Under the pieces are notes generated by a model. It made no database searches, was not told the origin of the DNA, and worked only from the letters and a program-made list of their open reading frames with translations. A DNA stretch of 63,213 nucleotides from Vermamoeba vermiformis (lineage: Eukaryota): positions 1 to 63,213 of the forward strand of contig JBEWZL010000035.1 in NCBI GenBank assembly GCA_045837725.1. Reading direction: 5' to 3'. Positions 6,752 to 15,268 of this stretch are shown piece after piece; position 1 is the first letter of the stretch; every line of letters begins with the position of its first letter. A program made the translations under genes and the position numbers.

Positions 6752-6869
6752 TGTGCTGCCAACGCATCTTAATTAAATCACAAAATTTGCGTTTGGTTCG
6801 CAAAACGGTTGCCGATCGGAAAAATATTTTTTACGGTTTTTACAGATCTGAACCGGCAGGAGTAAGTCC

Positions 6870-9800
6870 TTATAGGCGCGAAGGCGAAGAGAATAATCTA
6901 GTTAAGAACAATGTAAAATTCTCTTCGTTAATGGACGGACACTCCAGATTAGGCAATAGCGATTTCACGCTCGAATCGTCGTATTCTTGCTCGTCTGTAA
7001 AAGAGCAGTTAATCGGGTTAAGAAAGTGGGAAAACATCTTTCATACCGCTAGGAATATCGCTTGTAAACATTCGTAAATGCTGCAAAACCTTGCGAAGGA
7101 ACGGATTTAGCGTGCACAGCGCATTCTTGAACCACGCTACTCCACGTGCTAATATCGACTGTATTCTCTGGCATGTTGTGCATCTTTTCTGCCCATTGGC
7201 TGGTCTCCAATCCCCACTTTGATTGCTTGGGCGAATGCTTAGCAATGAATTTCAGGAGTTGCAAGTACGAGATCTTGCGCGGGTTGAAAAGATCGAAATC
7301 ACCTCCTTGTAAGTTGTTTGGTGGAAGTTGACCAATCATTGCAATAGCGCGGGCAACTGAACTTGGTTAATGAAGTTATAATGATATTCTCTACGCACCA
7401 TAATCAACGCTAGCCAACGACAAGGCATAATTAGTTCGTTCCGGGAAGCACTCTGCATAAATGCTACCAAGAATGAGGTCATGCACCCAATCCTTATCAT
7501 TGTATCCGCCAGTGATATGTGAGTAAGAGACCATTCCTAAAAACGTCAGGTTCAAAAGTCGTTATACAAGTCTGACGATTACCTGGTCTGAAGATGTTCA
7601 CCATGAATCCTCTCGTGCGGGCACGCATCAATAGACGTTCCGATACCAGTTTAGTTGCATTGTAGCCACCAAGTCTGTTTACCATTTCGGGATCTAGTTG
7701 AGCGTCTACCGATACGACTGTGCCAAGCGTTGAGACGAAGTTGAGCACTTTTTTTGATCCGTGTGCAGCAAACTTTAAGACTTCATGAGTAGCTACCACA
7801 TTGGACTTTCTGAGAGAAGAGTAAGGAAGTACGTGGTTGACCTCGGTAGCCGCGTGATATATAGTAGAGACGTGTGCTGAGAGGTCGTCGTAATCATCTT
7901 GAAACAAGCCGAACATGGGCGCAGAGCAGTCTCCCGAGAAGGCTGTTACGCGTGACAAGTCACAAAGTTCATCCAGATAATAACTTTTGAGTGTGTCTTG
8001 CAGCCGTTTAGTTGCCATCTCGTTCGAGGAGGCCCGAATCAAACAATAGACATGAGCCTTAGTACTGCTCAAAAGCTCGTGCAATAAGAAGGCGCCAACA
8101 AATCCAGTAACACCTAAAAGCCAGTTAATACGAACCATCGCGCACGTACTCGCCTACCTGTTAGCAATACATCTTGACCCTCGGCTGTAATGTTGTTTGG
8201 TTTCAACTCTTCGCCAAGCTGAATATCCTTCTGAATCTGAAACCACTGCCAACATGTTAGAATGTAAATTAAAGGGTTCAAAGACTTGCCTCGTTTTGTT
8301 GCGAAGGCTCTCCTGACGTCTTCTGCTTTTTGATGAAATTGAATATTTCATCGAGATTGTTGTTCAAAATCATCTCAGGCGGCACCGTAAACTGCATGGT
8401 CTGCTTGATTAGTTGTGAAAACTTGACGGCGTTAAGGGAATCTCCTCCAATTTCTGTGAAGCTGGTCGAGGACGATTTACTCTTAAAACCAAATACTGCT
8501 TCAAATATTCTGCATCCAAATTAGCGGTTAATTAGCGCTTAACTGTAAACTTACGCCTGCAGATTTTCCTTCTCTCGTTCTTCTTCTTGCTTCTCGAGTA
8601 CCGCGTTGATTGCGGCTTTGTAGTGCCGCTCGAGTTTGGGACGACACTTTCTGAAAACAGTGGTCAGTGAGAACAACACTAAGACAATGCCACGTACTTA
8701 GTTGACGAGGTCATGAATCCATTTTCGGCAGTCCATTTTGTAGGCTCTATGATGATGATATTTGGAATCTCAAAGGACCTCAGGTTCTCAGCCACGGCTA
8801 CTTCATTGAGTGCTGCGATGATTCGTTCTCGCAACGCTGCAGATTGGCATATCTCTTCGTACGATTTGCCTAAAGCTATTAACGACTATGAGCGGGCATT
8901 AGATTCGAGTTACCTTTCGTCTCGTCCTCTTTTGGCCAGTTTTCGATCAGTTGCTTGTTGGGCACAATTATCGCGGCCACGCCATTTTGAGAATAATGAA
9001 CATCACCGGACGTGATGAATATTTGATCGATTAGCGGAATGGATAAAAACATGGCTTCCAATGGCTCTGGTGACACGAATTCACCCTAATACCGTATGAG
9101 CTAATTTGAATCCACAGCATCAAACGTGTTACCTGTGCGAGCTTGAAGATGTTCTTCTTTCGGTCTATGATCCTGACTTTGTTCAATCCAATCAACTCAA
9201 CAATGTCGCCTGTTCTGAACCAGCCTTCTTCGTCGAACTGCTTTTTGGTTTCTTCTTCGTTTTTGTAATAACCTGGAATCATCGTTTGCGTCTTGACGTA
9301 CAATTCCCCTCGAGGATATGGCTTGTCGCTGAATGAGGGTCAGTGCGTGCACTACAATATTAACACATACGTTTCGAAATAACCAAGTTCAGGTACATCG
9401 ACGAGTTTGATTTCAATTCCGGTATGCATCGAGCCATCACTTGCAGCCAACGATCCCACTTCTGTAGTGCCGTAGCCTTCATCAAAACGGCACTGTTTAA
9501 AACACTCCTTCACCCATGCCCGAACTATAGGGCTGAACGCAGCACCGCCTGCTCGTAATTCCTTGATTCTTGTGCCAAATACTTTTGAAAACTGTTCTAA
9601 TAGCTGTTTCAAATTATTAATAGACATTACGCCTTAATTACTCGATGAAATTACCTCGGTGCGTATTTTTATGGCCTCGCTTTCCGTCAATTCTTCGCCC
9701 TTTTCTAGTTGCTTCTGTGCGTTAGCAATTGCCAAAGCTTTCTTGAACTGATTGTAAACGACGTCGAAAAATCTCGGAGTTCCATCCAAGAAGACTGGGT

Positions 9801-11371
9801 TGATAAGAGGAATGTCGTCGTAGATCTCTTCCGGGTTTTCAATGATACCAGTTCGTCCTCCGTTAATGAAAATCCTATAAACCCCGTTAAATAAGCTGCC
9901 CAAGTACGTAGATTAAACATACGTCAAGGTAACTTCACGATCGGACACGTGAGCTAGCGAGTCTAAGGGGGAAGTCAGAAAAGGTGTGATTGCGATGCCA
10001 ATTAATTACCTTTTGACACATTGACCAAAGCGTTCTTCTCTGCGAGCAAATAAGGAAGACGAATGAACGTACGCATTAATTGCTCGGTGAACATTGCACC
10101 CTTCGGAGCGCCAGTCGAGCCACTTGTGTAAATGATGGTAGCCAACTCATTCGGTTGTCTTATCACAATTGGTCTTGGAGATGATGTGCCAGCTTCCATT
10201 AGAGACGCAAAGGTAATAACATTATCGTAGTCTCCGTTGTCCATATCGATGACATGTTTCAAGTTGGGACACTTGGATCTGGCCTCATTGAACTTCGAAA
10301 CGAGCTTCCCACTGCATATAACCGTCGATAACTTGGTGTGGTTGAGAATAAATTCTCGCTCCTCGTCTTTGATGTGGTGGTGAATTGGCACAGAGGTCAA
10401 TCCGTACATGCCACACGCGATGTCGGCGATGAACCACTCTACTCGGTTATGTGACGATATGCCGACCAACGAGTTCTTTTCCAAGTTAAGCTTGTTAAGC
10501 AGGCCTAGATTGTATTACTACTATCAGCAAGAATGGAATCAATGTAGACCGAACAACACGTACCAGATCCAAAGGCTTTACAACGCGTCTCAATGTCCTT
10601 GTAAGTCAACCAGCTGTAAGAAGGCTTGCCATTGGTTATGACTTTATAACCGAAACACGGTCTGAACATGTACTGCGTGAAGGCTGCCTGATACATTTCA
10701 GCAATGCTGCTACATCGAACGACCTTCAACGAGCTGATTAATGCGTCGTTAACTACAACATATATTAGCCCTCCTTACGCGTTTAAATATCTCTTCAGGG
10801 TCTATAAGAGGTTCAATGCGCATGGGGTGCTCGTGCTCTTTAGTCTTGTGACATTCGCCGCAAAAATCGAAATTATCGCATTCAAAACAGTGATAACGGA
10901 CCATACGCCCTTAATAAAGGAAATATAAATTTTTTTGATGGAAATAGAATGGTGCTACCTGTAAACGTTGCATGGCACGCGTCACAAATAAAGACAGGTA
11001 AGTCCTCTGCATCAATGTGACCTCGAGTATCTTCCTTTTTATATTGGTCGAGCTTTTTAACTAAATACTCCTCATCCTTCTATTAATACAATCTAAGCTA
11101 AGCAAGTGAATACAAATTATTTGGGAATTAATTACCCTGCATTTTTTTAACCGGTCTTCTTTCTTCGCTAAATCTATTATAATAATTAGTAATGAAATTA
11201 TCGTCGAATATTTAATTGTATAATATTTTTTGACTTACCTTCACCAGTCAGTTTGTCGATTTCGGTTAATATTGCTTGAATTTCTTTACGAGCGTGTTCC
11301 AAGGCAATATTGTTTACCTGCCATCCATATTGCAAGCGAAGACGCTCTAATGTCTCAGTTTTGTCATACAT
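6870..11371 (-). CDS. carboxylic acid reductase-like NRPS module (A-T-R) with N-terminal ZZ-type zinc finger
   Basis: A domain IIYTSGSTGAPKG, EGYGTTE, FRTGD, DRKKNIFKLAQGEFVS; T domain FTEIGGDSL; R domain TGVTGFVG and GYNATKLVSE; spliced CDACHATFTGRMVRYHCFECDNFDFCGECHKTKEHEH at ~10815-11000; start codon uncertain. Confidence 0.88.
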
Positions 11372-11578: not shown

Positions 11579-12677
11579 TTAGAGCTCATCAATTTCGCCG
11601 TTGCCCTTAACCCACCAGGCCTTGGTTTGGCGGTTCTTGCTGACAACAGTTTCGACGGTGTAGATCAAGGTCAATTGTACAGCACCGATAGGATCATCAA
11701 CCGAATCACCAACTATAAATTCGATATTAATAGAGCCATAAATTATCACCCAAACGAAAAGAGATCTTCGATCAATATTTAATTATTATAAAATTAGTAG
11801 TTCAATGAGCCAGTTCTTGGCCTCGCGATAGGAAATTTTTATATTACATACCGTTCAAAACTTGAGGAATTTCAACGGAGCAAGCAAAGTTATAACCCCA
11901 AGCAACCTGATCGATGAGGATTAGAATTTTATAGGAAAGGTTCAACGCAGGTTGTCGAGCTATGATAATAGTCCGCACTATCTATCGTCATGCTATTAAA
12001 CTTACATCGATATTAGAAGGAATGATTTGAACACCAGTCAAATATTGGCCTTTGCCTTTATATTTGCCGCCATAAATATAGACGACGTGGTAGTCAAACT
12101 TAATAACGGTGGCCTACATAATTCAGTCAATAAATCGCGGTAAGCATTTTTAAAAAAAATTGATCTTTTAAAGGTGAATTGTACTGACCTTGTAAAGATT
12201 AAAGTACTCAATGGAGTAAGCTTCAGAAACAGGCTGTTTCCAGTTTGTCAAAGTTTTCCAATCCTCGATACCTTTCTGAAAGAAGGAACGACAAGTTAGA
12301 ATTCGAACGGATTTAAGGATTTAGTTCGTGCTTACGGGGGTGGCAGTACCGTAATTGACCTTAACCACAGAAGTAGGTTGATTTTTCACGATAATGTCCC
12401 ACACTTCCTTGCCAATATTAATCATAGAACCAAGATCAACTCCATCAAATTGCAATCCACGTTCAGCACGAGCAACGCTCTCGTTCAAACGAGCCATATG
12501 TTCCTTGTACAGGTGGTACAAATTACCGCGAGCAGCTTCGTGAGGCTCCAAGCGACGGATCTTGAAAGTGAGCTCTTCGGCAGATTGGTCACCGAGATTC
12601 ACACCTGAGGTCGAAACACGCAAGGCATTGGCAAAAATAGCCAATGACAAAATTAATACAACGGTGGTTTGTTGCAT
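11579..12677 (-). CDS. secreted hypothetical beta-rich protein
   Basis: Signal peptide MQQTTVVLILSLAIFANA; spliced exons ...INIGKEVWDIIVKNQP...YIYGGKYKGKGQYLTGV...VAWGYNF...WWVKGNGEIDEL*. Confidence 0.75.
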
Positions 12678-12824
12678 TATGTATGGTTGTGGAAATGTAA
12701 GTTGTTTTTGGTTTGGTACAAAATTTTGTTCGATCAGAATTTGACTGTCAAATTTCTAACCCAAATTGTTACTTTGATATTTCTTTTACTTCTATTTACA
12801 ATAAATATTAAATATTCGCTTTGT

Positions 12825-15268
12825 TTAGGCAGCGACGATGTCAGAGGCGAGGTTTCGCTTTGCAGTAGGGCTGTTAGGGATCTCATCCAAAGGCTTCAAA
12901 CCAGGGTGCAAGTAAGCAGTGCGAAGAGTTTCGGAATCGAAGTGACGAGGGACTCGAGCCACATCCAAAATCTTCAACAATCTTCGCTCGTTTCGCTTGC
13001 GCTGAACGGCAAGAATGATGCACAACACGGCACTCAAACCTACGAAAGCCAAGGAAGTCCAAGCAGCGGCAAACAAGCCCTTGACAAGGAAGAAGAAAAA
13101 CGTAATGACTTGGAAGATGAGCAAGCTGACAAAGAAGATGTTGATCGAGGTGGGAACGAAAGCACCAGGAGGGTGAATGTCGCGAGTGTGAACGTAGATA
13201 AAGTTGTATCTATCGGAGAACCAACGCAAAGCGAAGTAAGTCAAACCGAAGGGCAAGATGAGCGGAGTGACGATGCTGAAAGAGATGGTGATGACGAAGA
13301 CCAAGAGACAGAAGGCAATGTGAGTCATGTAGGAGTAGTAGCCAACAACGTCCTTGTAGTAGGTGTCCTTGGAGCTCTTGCGGACAAAGTCAAGGACGTA
13401 CGAGATGAGTTGACCGGGGCGCAACAAAAGCAAGACAAAACCTTGCAAGAACATTGCAAAAATCAACCATCCGATCAAGAAGGCACCAATGCGAGAGTAA
13501 TCAACAGACGAGAAGTTGTTGAGGATAGAGCTCGGGTCAGAAAGGAATTGCTGTAATTAACACATTAGTCACGATTACTTTCGCATACCATAGTGTATCT
13601 TGCTTACATTAGCAAAAGCGACACCGCTGTCAAAGATGGTCTTGAAGATCAAAGAGTTTAGCACGACGAAGAGGAAATACTTGCGCAAAGCGCCGATTTC
13701 GAGTGAGGTCTTGCTGTGAGGGCGTTCAAGCTTGGTCAAAGCGCGCATAAGAGTGGGCAATACGGCCAAGAAGATGTACACAAGCAAGATGGGAATGTAG
13801 TAAATGATCAAGTTTGTCGCGATGGGGCTGATGTTCAAGATCCAGCCAAAGTAGGGTGCACCAGCGTCGGTCAAGCCGAAGATGATAATGTTGCTAAAGA
13901 ACGAAATGACAGCGGACCAAAAGAGGGCAATGAGAACGACTAAGATGTTGACACCAACGGCAGCAAGACGTTGCATCCAGCGAGGAGCATAGAGGTAGTT
14001 CCATTGAACGGCAGCTGGGGGCACGGGAGCAATCTTGGCAGACCACTGTCTGAGCTTAATAGACTTCTCGGCCTCGCTTCCGCGGTGTTTGCGAAGTCTG
14101 TGGCTGGTCTCTTCCATGTCGCGGACGCATCGTACAGCGTCAGAAGGCTCTCTGAAAGTAACAAAAGCTACGGGCGAGTCTTTGTGAGTCAATGGCATCA
14201 ATTGTTTGGTTTGCAATGCGTTAGTCCAGACATCAATGCTGTTGGTGTAATGGTCGAGAGCATCGGCCTTGACGGAAGAGTCTTTACACTCCTTGGCTTC
14301 GGTACGCTTGTTCTTCTCGCGCAAAAGCTCTTCAGCTTTGCCGTAACCCATGTAAGCGTTCCTTCGGTTTGAAATGAATCGAAGATGCTCGGGGAGGTGG
14401 TAGCCCAAGTTGACCGACAAGACGCGATCCGGGTAAAGTTCGTTGAAGTAATCGAAGATGACATTAGGATCGGCTGTCTTAGGCAGATTCAAATAGACAG
14501 TGCAAGCTTGCACGGCTGTAAATTAAATCTGTGAGTTGAAATTTCACTCGAATGTCGGCAACTTCTAGATCGATATATCTCGATCTAAAACCGCATCAGC
14601 ACCACTTACTGCAAGGGTCTCTGTAGGCCTCTCTCAACTTAGGCAAGAAGTACTTGTTCTGGTAGAAGTAAATGAGCAACCAAGCCAAGACGCTGAACAC
14701 AGCAAACACAGCAAAGTTAGCCCACAACCACGAATAGCCTTCTTCGTAGACACTCGCCGACAGGTCGGGGAAACTTATGCCGCCGGAGTAGATTGTAGTC
14801 AATGGGAATAAGATAACGAGGCCTATCATCAATTCATGAACATTTTTAAAAATGAAGTTAAAATTTTTGGATCTGTTTCACTTACCGATTACAGTGCAAA
14901 TGGCAAAATAAATCATCAAGTACTTGATGAACTTCAATTGAAAGACGGCATTATATCCTGAGCTGAGCACAATTTCCTGTTCTGAAGCGCTGAAAACATT
15001 TCTGAACCAGCCGCAGCCTTTTTTCAGTTTTCTGTATGAATCCGGACTTGAAGAGAACAAATGGTTAGTGAATATGTTACTTGTGCGTATAATGCTCCAT
15101 TTTCAATTCTTACTTGTTTTCTCTGTATTTAGGGTAGAAAAACCTCGCCATGCCCGGTCGCAGAATTAAAAATATGATCAACAAAGCGATCATAATTGCA
15201 CCGGTGATAATCAGTGTCTCGGGTATACCACCCGTTGCGGTATTCTGTTTGTCACCGCCGCTATTCAT
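12825..15268 (-). CDS. OSCA/TMEM63/CSC1-family mechanosensitive Ca2+-permeable channel
   Basis: Many TM helices; AFVTF motif, cytosolic RRM-like loop, FSIVTPLILPFGLTYF and DRYNFIYV typical of the RSN1_7TM region. Confidence 0.9.

Follow-up and report, generated by a model that had tools for sequence, protein, structure and literature searches.

A ZZ zinc finger joined to a carboxylic acid reductase-like protein of Vermamoeba vermiformis and its protist relatives

We analysed a stretch of 63,213 nucleotides from Vermamoeba vermiformis (assembly GCA_045837725.1, contig JBEWZL010000035.1, positions 1 to 63,213 of the forward strand), called the window below, and in it a minus-strand gene that encodes, in this order, a helical hairpin, a ZZ zinc finger, an adenylation (A) domain, a carrier (T) domain and a reductase (R) domain. 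Our data indicate that the ZZ finger and the A domain are encoded by one transcript, in frame, and that the ZZ fusion is not a one-off and is the usual form of a widespread protist family resembling the carboxylic acid reductases (CARs). The gene product would be a single-chain CAR-like acid reductase of this family, with the ZZ finger as a standing front-end part, and we give this reading a probability of roughly 0.65. An earlier note, made from the sequence alone, had described a ZZ finger fused to a mycobacterial-style CAR.

The surrounding stretch is eukaryotic, with short introns, and of the introns modelled in the gene 17 are GT-AG and one is GC-AG. The model was compared with a second copy of the gene, C221, and with contigs from the run X1, which was taken for RNA by guess and treated as cDNA on the strength of contigs that skip introns; none of the runs listed for the gene is recorded as RNA.

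11371-6870, minus strand: ZZ-A-T-R gene, 19-exon model, introns of 42-65 bases
11371-11239, 11173-11136, 11079-10959, 10909-10779, 10723-10564, 10504-10010, 9962-9923, 9874-9655, 9603-9371, 9328-9133, minus strand: exons 1-10
9085-8914, 8869-8698, 8650-8555, 8509-8290, 8245-8158, 8113-7583, 7536-7399, 7356-7047, 6994-6870, minus strand: exons 11-19
10724..10778, minus strand: phase-0 intron of 55 bases from the ZZ exon to the first A exon (X1 joint 10721/10777, CT..AC with the cut at +2)
8246..8289, minus strand: GC-AG intron (X1 joint 8245/8290, CT..GC; GC donor retained in C221)

The junction between the ZZ finger and the A domain was ambiguous from the sequence, since splicing to the closer CAG acceptor would bring in a stop. 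A 206-letter X1 contig omits 10778-10724 (GT..AG, phase 0) and preserves the frame from ZZ to A; 112 of its letters are the ZZ exon, with no other letters, and 94 are the first A-domain exon. The acceptor used in X1 is AAG, 9 bases beyond the nearest CAG. The single transcript supposed by the earlier note was thus seen in X1. X1 contigs covered 8 of the 18 modelled introns (4, 6, 7, 11, 14, 15, 17 and 18), and introns 1-3 lie outside X1 cover and were placed by the C221 copy and homologues. The stop behind the CAG acceptor and the missing cover of introns 1-3 might suggest that the ZZ exons belong to a separate transcript. This is extremely improbable: the X1 joint is in frame via the AAG acceptor, which refutes the idea for the ZZ-to-A joint, and single transcriptome-derived frames hold ZZ and A-T-R in seven protists (Clastostelium, Cavostelium, Echinamoeba, Protostelium, Stenamoeba, Platysulcus and Ancoracysta). 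The raw-read RNA runs X6, X7 and X8 gave 8, 4 and 11 partial matches, with 0 at 99% likeness and 0 joints; these matches are from another organism or strain and carry no weight either way. The upstream gene ends at 11579, ~200 bases from the ZZ-A-T-R gene, and therefore there is little room for more 5' exons.

A Pfam scan of 15 exon pieces of the gene found PF00569, PF00501, PF00550 and PF07993 in order on the minus strand, which bears out the architecture read in the earlier note. Splicing exons 3 and 4 across intron 10958-10910, exons that the open reading frame track misses, yields all eight metal ligands of the finger, as the note had also said.

11035..11371, minus strand: N-terminal helical hairpin, coiled-coil-like, residues 1 to ~72 (no Pfam match; outside RNA cover)
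10824..10995, minus strand: ZZ zinc finger, residues 86-126, split by intron 10958-10910 (PF00569; codons identical in C221)
8581..10814, minus strand: adenylation domain, residues ~130-727 (PF00501)
8290..8509, minus strand: carrier domain, phosphopantetheine S760 (codon 8439-8437), motif at 757 (PF00550, 31.8 bits, exon 14)
6870..8179, minus strand: thioester reductase domain (PF07993, NAD_binding_4, 147.9 bits, exon 16)

Exon 4 alone scored 31.2 bits on PF00569 (cut-off 21.4), and the ligands are six Cys and two His (C89, C92, C105, C108, C114, C117, H123 and H125). The AMP-binding match was over the cut-off in exon 6 (101.6 bits) and below it in exon 9, and exon 16 alone reached 172.6 bits on TIGR01746. 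The A domain has the P-loop at 320-330, H364, E494, D565, R580, E591 and K704, and the R domain has TGxxGxxG at 838-845, R865 for NADPH, T967, Y989 and K993. The PxxH motif reads SLAH, and G1016 occupies the place of D984 of the Nocardia enzyme, the on/off Asp of the R domain. The roles of the A-domain residues, the on/off Asp and the definition of essential CAR residues follow PMC5826065; this and the other papers are cited here and below for the parts of their text that were available. In NcCAR, loss of any of five residues (His, Glu, Ser, Tyr and Lys) kills the enzyme (PMC5826065), and all five are matched in the window protein by H364, E591, S760, Y989 and K993. Thus A-T-R in one chain, the essential residues, and TGxxGxxG with a downstream Arg, by which CAR membership is judged, are all present. 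The genome also has two phosphopantetheinyl-transferase matches over the cut-off. Hairpin-like segments precede the ZZ finger, by eye, in L019, Capsaspora, Clastostelium, Thecamonas and Protostelium.

Searches of the genome with the R exon (17 matches) and an A exon (16 matches) gave eight distinct CAR-like loci: C35/C221, C289, C296, C208, C100/C212, C11, C126 and C56. A ZZ or ZZ-like finger lies directly ahead of the A domain in all eight, found by Pfam in C35/C221, C289, C296 and C100/C212 and both by eye and with a custom profile in C208, C11, C126 and C56, whose splicing is predicted only. The nearest named relatives of these copies are from Arcella and Echinamoeba. Four more loci with R domains (C300, C77, C57 and C84) were placed outside the family, having a weak match or none to the family A domain and no ZZ; C84 matches PF03015. 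The first three (L020, L022 and L027) have a terminal R domain and long exons and resemble nonribosomal peptide synthetases (NRPS).

Beyond this genome, a profile search of 1.84 billion representatives was made and the 150 best matches were taken. With a ZZ profile seeded from the same set, the finger was found at 12 bits or more in 55 of the 150 and at 20 bits or more in 51, and Pfam ZZ over the cut-off was confirmed for 7 of the matches scanned. Sixty-eight matches have at least 60 residues ahead of the A domain once 28 of bacterial type I, 4 myxobacteria-like and 5 polyketide synthase (PKS) or ACSL proteins are excluded, the other 45 being too short in front; ZZ was found in 55 of these 68. 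It was found in none of the 28 type I and none of the 4 myxobacteria-like matches. Organism names were established for 30 proteins. ZZ members occur in Amoebozoa (Clastostelium, Cavostelium, Protostelium, Acytostelium, Dictyostelium dimigraforme, Pelomyxa, Echinamoeba and Stenamoeba) and elsewhere in Capsaspora, Thecamonas, Anaeramoeba, Platysulcus and Ancoracysta; at least five eukaryote supergroups are represented. The Naegleria lovaniensis protein P0132 has no ZZ. A separate search with exon 6 found PF00569 in 0 of the best 120 of 125 homologue matches and was too insensitive. The earlier note had treated the architecture as a rarity, and the 55 of 150 matches, with two members already machine-named carboxylic acid reductases, contradict this. 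That note had staked its proposal on ZZ and A sharing a transcript and on the architecture being neither common nor annotated; the first held, and the architecture proved to be common. Its statement that no described ZZ-CAR is known agrees with the literature, as full-text searches aimed at such an enzyme, with few subscription journals covered, found no paper on ZZ-bearing or protist CARs among the matches listed.

Given these residues, and by analogy with the established CAR cycle, the A domain would convert a carboxylic acid and ATP to acyl-AMP, the acyl group would move to the phosphopantetheine on S760, and the R domain would use NADPH to reduce the thioester to an aldehyde and quite possibly on to an alcohol. 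The chemistry is probably the known CAR chemistry, and some members are already entered in databases as CARs. An aliphatic or fatty acid is the likeliest substrate, at about even odds, because the A domain descends from long-chain acyl-CoA synthetases. In fold comparison, the R domain of a homologue model matched MxaA (Z 43.4, root mean square deviation 2.4, 365 aligned), with bacterial CAR R domains at 35-37, and MxaA releases alcohols. Gly stands at the D984 place in NcCAR too, and this enzyme takes aldehydes on to alcohols (PMC10168641). An alcohol is a possible product of the window enzyme.

One other use of the activated acyl group was considered, in which the ZZ finger would hold an N-terminal amine near the acyl-AMP or aldehyde for N-acylation or reductive alkylation of proteins. 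Amide formation by a truncated CAR A domain (PMC9401052) and the binding of alpha-amino groups by ZZ domains could be taken, by inference only, to favour it. The T and R domains, however, are fully intact, as for release of a reduced product, and the amine-binding residues are variable, and we regard protein modification as very unlikely.

For the finger itself, we propose that it most likely caps the A domain and gives a docking surface, and that location or partners most likely depend on the module ahead of it (the hairpin here, and in paralogues a small GTPase or a membrane anchor). It precedes the A core by a short and constant distance, approximately where type I CARs have an N-terminal helical stretch: the last ZZ Cys and the first A-domain motif are 41-49 residues apart in 15 of the 22 proteins measured. 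An AlphaFold2 model of the homologue P0238 (67 sequences) had a mean predicted local distance difference test score (pLDDT) of 89.5 and a predicted template modelling score of 0.63. It has two N-terminal helices (2-36 and 41-62), with pLDDT below 50 between the hairpin and ZZ and above 90 through ZZ, the linker helix and A. Its alignment with Nocardia CAR starts inside ZZ, residue 101 against 22 (the range only is given), and other ANL enzymes align from 135-141 only. The model fits a finger fixed to the A domain at the place of the type I helical extension. A complex prediction for ZZ and the A domain of P0238, with no alignment used, scored 0.00 and gives no indication either way.

The residues of the finger were also compared with p62. 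In a register that we assume in part from the spacing of p62, D129, D149 and R139 of p62 match D90, D112 and R102 of the window ZZ, and the positions of D147 and N132 are taken by N110 and H93. The window ZZ would accordingly keep two of the four degron-binding residues (D129 and D149, not D147 and N132). In p62, D129 and D149 hold the alpha-amino group, and the finger was crystallized with free arginine (PMC6197226); D147 and N132 each account for ~30-fold in binding, and these residues are not conserved among ZZ domains generally (PMC6098011). Among 50 family fingers scored (three more could not be read), D129 with D149 is found in 28, all three Asp in 10 and N132 in 5. It is conceivable that the finger is a p62-like ligand switch that, on binding a free amino acid or the free N-terminus of a protein, gates the enzyme or tethers it to a partner, in line with the protein-interaction control inferred in the earlier note. 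The two matched alpha-amino-holding acids, their retention in 28 of the 50 fingers, R102 and the free arginine bound by p62 are in its favour, but D147 and N132 are replaced by Asn and His, the full set of Asp and N132 are infrequent in the family, and the paralogues C11, C126 and C56 lost the D149 match by eye and keep the finger. We regard this suggestion as rather unlikely.

Several points weigh against the reading of the gene as a ZZ-fronted CAR-like reductase. The ZZ-to-A joint is one contig of depth 3 from the single run X1, and the window frame as written has a stop at residue 1163, with loss of ~60 C-terminal residues. Longer linkers, of up to 132 residues, occur in 7 of the 22 proteins measured, 28 of 50 ZZ proteins gave no match to the linker motif, and 13 of the 68 long members have no detectable ZZ, so that the finger is dispensable in some. 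The structure is that of the homologue P0238, and its high pLDDT is no proof of packing between ZZ and A. No characterized family member was found. Gly does not decide between aldehyde and alcohol, as fungal CARs with Gly still yield mostly aldehyde. Three separate matches to fatty acyl-CoA reductases (PF03015) are present in the genome, so fatty alcohols need not come from the ZZ-CAR. A role in ether-lipid supply is weakened by the same three matches, and Capsaspora uses other named enzymes there (PMC11225845).

A-domain trees were made from 182 rows with FastTree (13 gappy rows dropped), from 69 rows under LG+G4 (a quick tree) and from 45 rows under LG+C20. By their A domains, all A-T-R proteins fall into a single clade within the acyl-CoA synthetases, with 100% support in the Shimodaira–Hasegawa-like approximate likelihood ratio test (SH-aLRT). 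In it the C221 copy pairs with C289, and the clade that unites the window gene with Capsaspora, Thecamonas, Pelomyxa, Protostelium and Clastostelium reaches 100% SH-aLRT under both LG+G4 and LG+C20. Bacterial type I CARs are a clade of their own (100%), so that the A-domain phylogeny, named by the earlier note as a check, puts the window gene with protist proteins and outside type I. The R-domain tree mostly agrees with the protist grouping (96%; one long-branch intruder). The backbone of the A-domain trees is without resolution, and the free trees place the type I clade among protist ZZ proteins. We do not claim that bacterial CARs are nested in protist ZZ-CARs, as a tree with the protists together was 3.9 units better, and a monophyletic protist group is not rejected in the approximately unbiased (AU) test (p 0.578).

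The description as mycobacterial-style did not hold. A-domain identity is 29-31% to Mycobacterium and Nocardia CARs and 38-42% to the Capsaspora, Clastostelium, Protostelium and Arcella proteins. The motif quoted in the earlier note, DRKKNIFKL.QGE, recurs in two acyl-CoA synthetases of this genome that stand alone (L032 and L033), and the Mycobacterium and Nocardia CARs read DRRNNV at this site. The place of the on/off Asp is Gly in the window protein and in 39 of 53 ZZ members; Asp is found in 5 of 7 actinobacterial-type rows and in 9 of 39 rows of the wider clade. On the model NF041592 (cut-off 1300), scored on six full-length homologues in place of the window protein, five ZZ members and a Pelomyxa protein with half a finger reached 332-493 bits and a Mycobacterium CAR 1731. 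The likeness to CARs as such was borne out: in the homologue model the closest solved A domain is that of Nocardia CAR (Z 37.9). In the ESM Atlas the nearest clusters are bacterial CARs, with no usable match for the N-terminal 175 residues. Judged by its sequence, the window protein would work like a CAR but falls outside bacterial type I.

These data also bear on the origin of the gene. The earlier note had inferred a bacterial enzyme placed under eukaryotic control, and the position of the gene in a protist clade does not support it. A recent uptake of a type I CAR by this lineage, with the ZZ finger grafted on, would explain why the best NCBIfam model and the best solved A domain for family members are those of bacterial CARs, and forcing the window pair together with type I CARs is not formally rejected (AU p 0.066; 33 rows, LG+G4). 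The constrained tree is nevertheless 23 log-likelihood units worse, the free A-domain trees and the R domain give the protist placement, and 18 introns, eight diverged paralogues and at least five supergroups point to an old family. We consider recent uptake very unlikely. The ZZ-CAR family is old, and transfer in either direction between protists and bacteria is compatible with the trees. A bolder history, which we regard as doubtful, is that ZZ-CARs are ancient, perhaps as old as the last eukaryotic common ancestor, and arose by fusion of a fatty acyl-CoA synthetase, a carrier and a reductase; the ZZ finger would be a sensor of amines or N-termini that switches between aldehyde and alcohol output, and type I CARs, the enzymes most relied on in biocatalysis, would be derived by loss of the finger.

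The stop at residue 1163 comes from one place in the window sequence, which the earlier note had overlooked.

7104..7106, minus strand: gap of 2 bases, after which the frame shifts to a stop at 7051-7049 (C221 alignment and X1 contig)

Two more letters stand behind 7105 in both the C221 copy and the X1 contig. The C221 copy has an open frame of 1204 residues and retains all 18 donor/acceptor pairs, and it is 96.6% identical to the window across all 8 kb fetched. Over 1144 codons the two differ by 87 synonymous and 23 non-synonymous changes, with none in ZZ. The C221 copy is probably the other haplotype. Over 7047-7142 the X1 contig has the 2 bases and one other letter relative to the window, and C221 differs there at 3 places; because the X1 piece is nearer to the window than C221 is, an assembly error is favoured over a dead allele, and the gap is probably such an error. 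The missing bases could also mark the window copy as dead or shortened, with C221 as the sole working allele. This is unlikely: the complete frame is present in a window-like X1 transcript, changes elsewhere in the frame are mainly synonymous, and the likeness to C221 over 8 kb fits a second haplotype.

The module ahead of ZZ varies in the family, being a hairpin in the window gene, a hydrophobic helix in C208 and a Ras-like domain in C56. The paralogue C208 (L025:5474-5593) seems to open with the hydrophobic helix, as a membrane anchor, before ZZ. In C56 (L026:5082-6005, minus strand), an apparent Ras/Rho-like small GTPase start (PF00071, 24.9 bits) is followed by a degenerate ZZ and A-T-R; that these share a frame was judged by eye, and the splicing is predicted only. 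P0261, sister of C56 in the A tree, has a Ras piece of 22.5 bits and no ZZ. L028 and the Echinamoeba protein P0234 start with Met-Gly, by eye, as for a possible myristoylation. P0322 and P0374 have an FAD-binding, berberine-bridge-like oxidase in front, P0323 a protein kinase, P0272 a trehalase, and P0144 and P0351 an unassigned repeat region, and some of these fusions may be products of gene calling. Three partial proteins of the bdelloid rotifer Didymodactylos (P0001, P0121 and P0122) lie inside the protist hairpin-ZZ clade beside Clastostelium, possibly by transfer from an amoeba or by contamination. A myxobacterial A-T-R group of Enhygromyxa (P0037/P0235, P0277, P0289, P0299 and P0330) lies apart from type I CARs; its R domains are of the RxG type, and its long N-terminal extensions contain no ZZ.

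Three neighbours lie on the minus strand. An ABC transporter gene (ABC_membrane, ABC_tran) occupies window position 6757 and below and starts ~110 bases past the stop codon of the ZZ-A-T-R gene; a cluster of the two was considered, for which no support was sought in other species. The gene directly upstream, at 11579-12680, has several exons and opens with a signal-peptide-like segment; three pieces of it were scanned and gave no Pfam match. An OSCA/TMEM63-type channel gene (RSN1_7TM, PHM7_cyt) lies at 12825-14522.

In the available part of PMC5826065, the table of CARs lists bacterial and fungal enzymes only. A large, diverged protist branch would be a pool of biocatalyst candidates and marks a gap in what is known of amoeba metabolism; its scale is seen in members only 25-48% alike and in eight loci of one amoeba. 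ZZ fingers are familiar from proteins of autophagy, of the ubiquitin system and of chromatin; here one is part of a metabolic enzyme. Because the family includes dictyostelid and Capsaspora proteins, what the finger does can be approached by genetics.

The nearest counterparts are family members named only by machine. Thecamonas KNC52485, Pelomyxa KAH3744291 and Capsaspora CAOG_02344 have the same subfamily and architecture as the window gene; the first two carry the automatic name 'ATP/NADPH-dependent carboxylic acid reductase', and no study of the three was found. Bacterial type I CARs (EC 1.2.1.30; Nocardia iowensis 5MSC, Segniliparus rugosus 5MST and Mycobacterium marinum; NF041592) share with the window protein the A-T-R order, the essential residues, the bacterial-type GEF motif, the A10 lysine and the A-domain clade of A-T-R proteins, and the fold match to Nocardia CAR covers 563 aligned residues (root mean square deviation 2.3; homologue model). 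They differ in an N-terminal helical stretch where the window protein has ZZ and the hairpin, and identity is 26-27% in the R domain, against 29-31% in A. The ACSL/LACS enzymes share the DRKKNIFKL.QGE motif and are the nearest outgroup of the A domain, and identity to two of them encoded in this genome is 30-32%, but they stand alone, without T, R or ZZ, and produce acyl-CoA; the window A domain is fused to T-R and split from them by a 100% branch.

Among the NRPS/PKS systems, the myxobacterial terminal reductase MxaA (4U7W) is the top fold match of the family R domain, and exon 16 reaches 125 bits with the MxcG model and 75 with that of CARs; the RxG motif is shared. The window protein differs from both in having no condensation or ketosynthase domains. 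Identity as a Lys2, MxcG or AusA NRPS-like reductase was rejected, as homologues scored 95-227 on Lys2 (cut-off 1030) and 84-247 on MxcG (cut-off 2300). The Enhygromyxa A-T-R protein P0037/P0235 has no ZZ, and in front a weak galactose-binding-like domain (18.7 bits, under the cut-off). The ZZ fingers of the N-recognins p62/SQSTM1 and PRT1 share with the window ZZ the six Cys and two His and the matches of D129, R139 and D149; unlike them, the window protein joins its ZZ to a metabolic enzyme and has no PB1, UBA or E3 domain.

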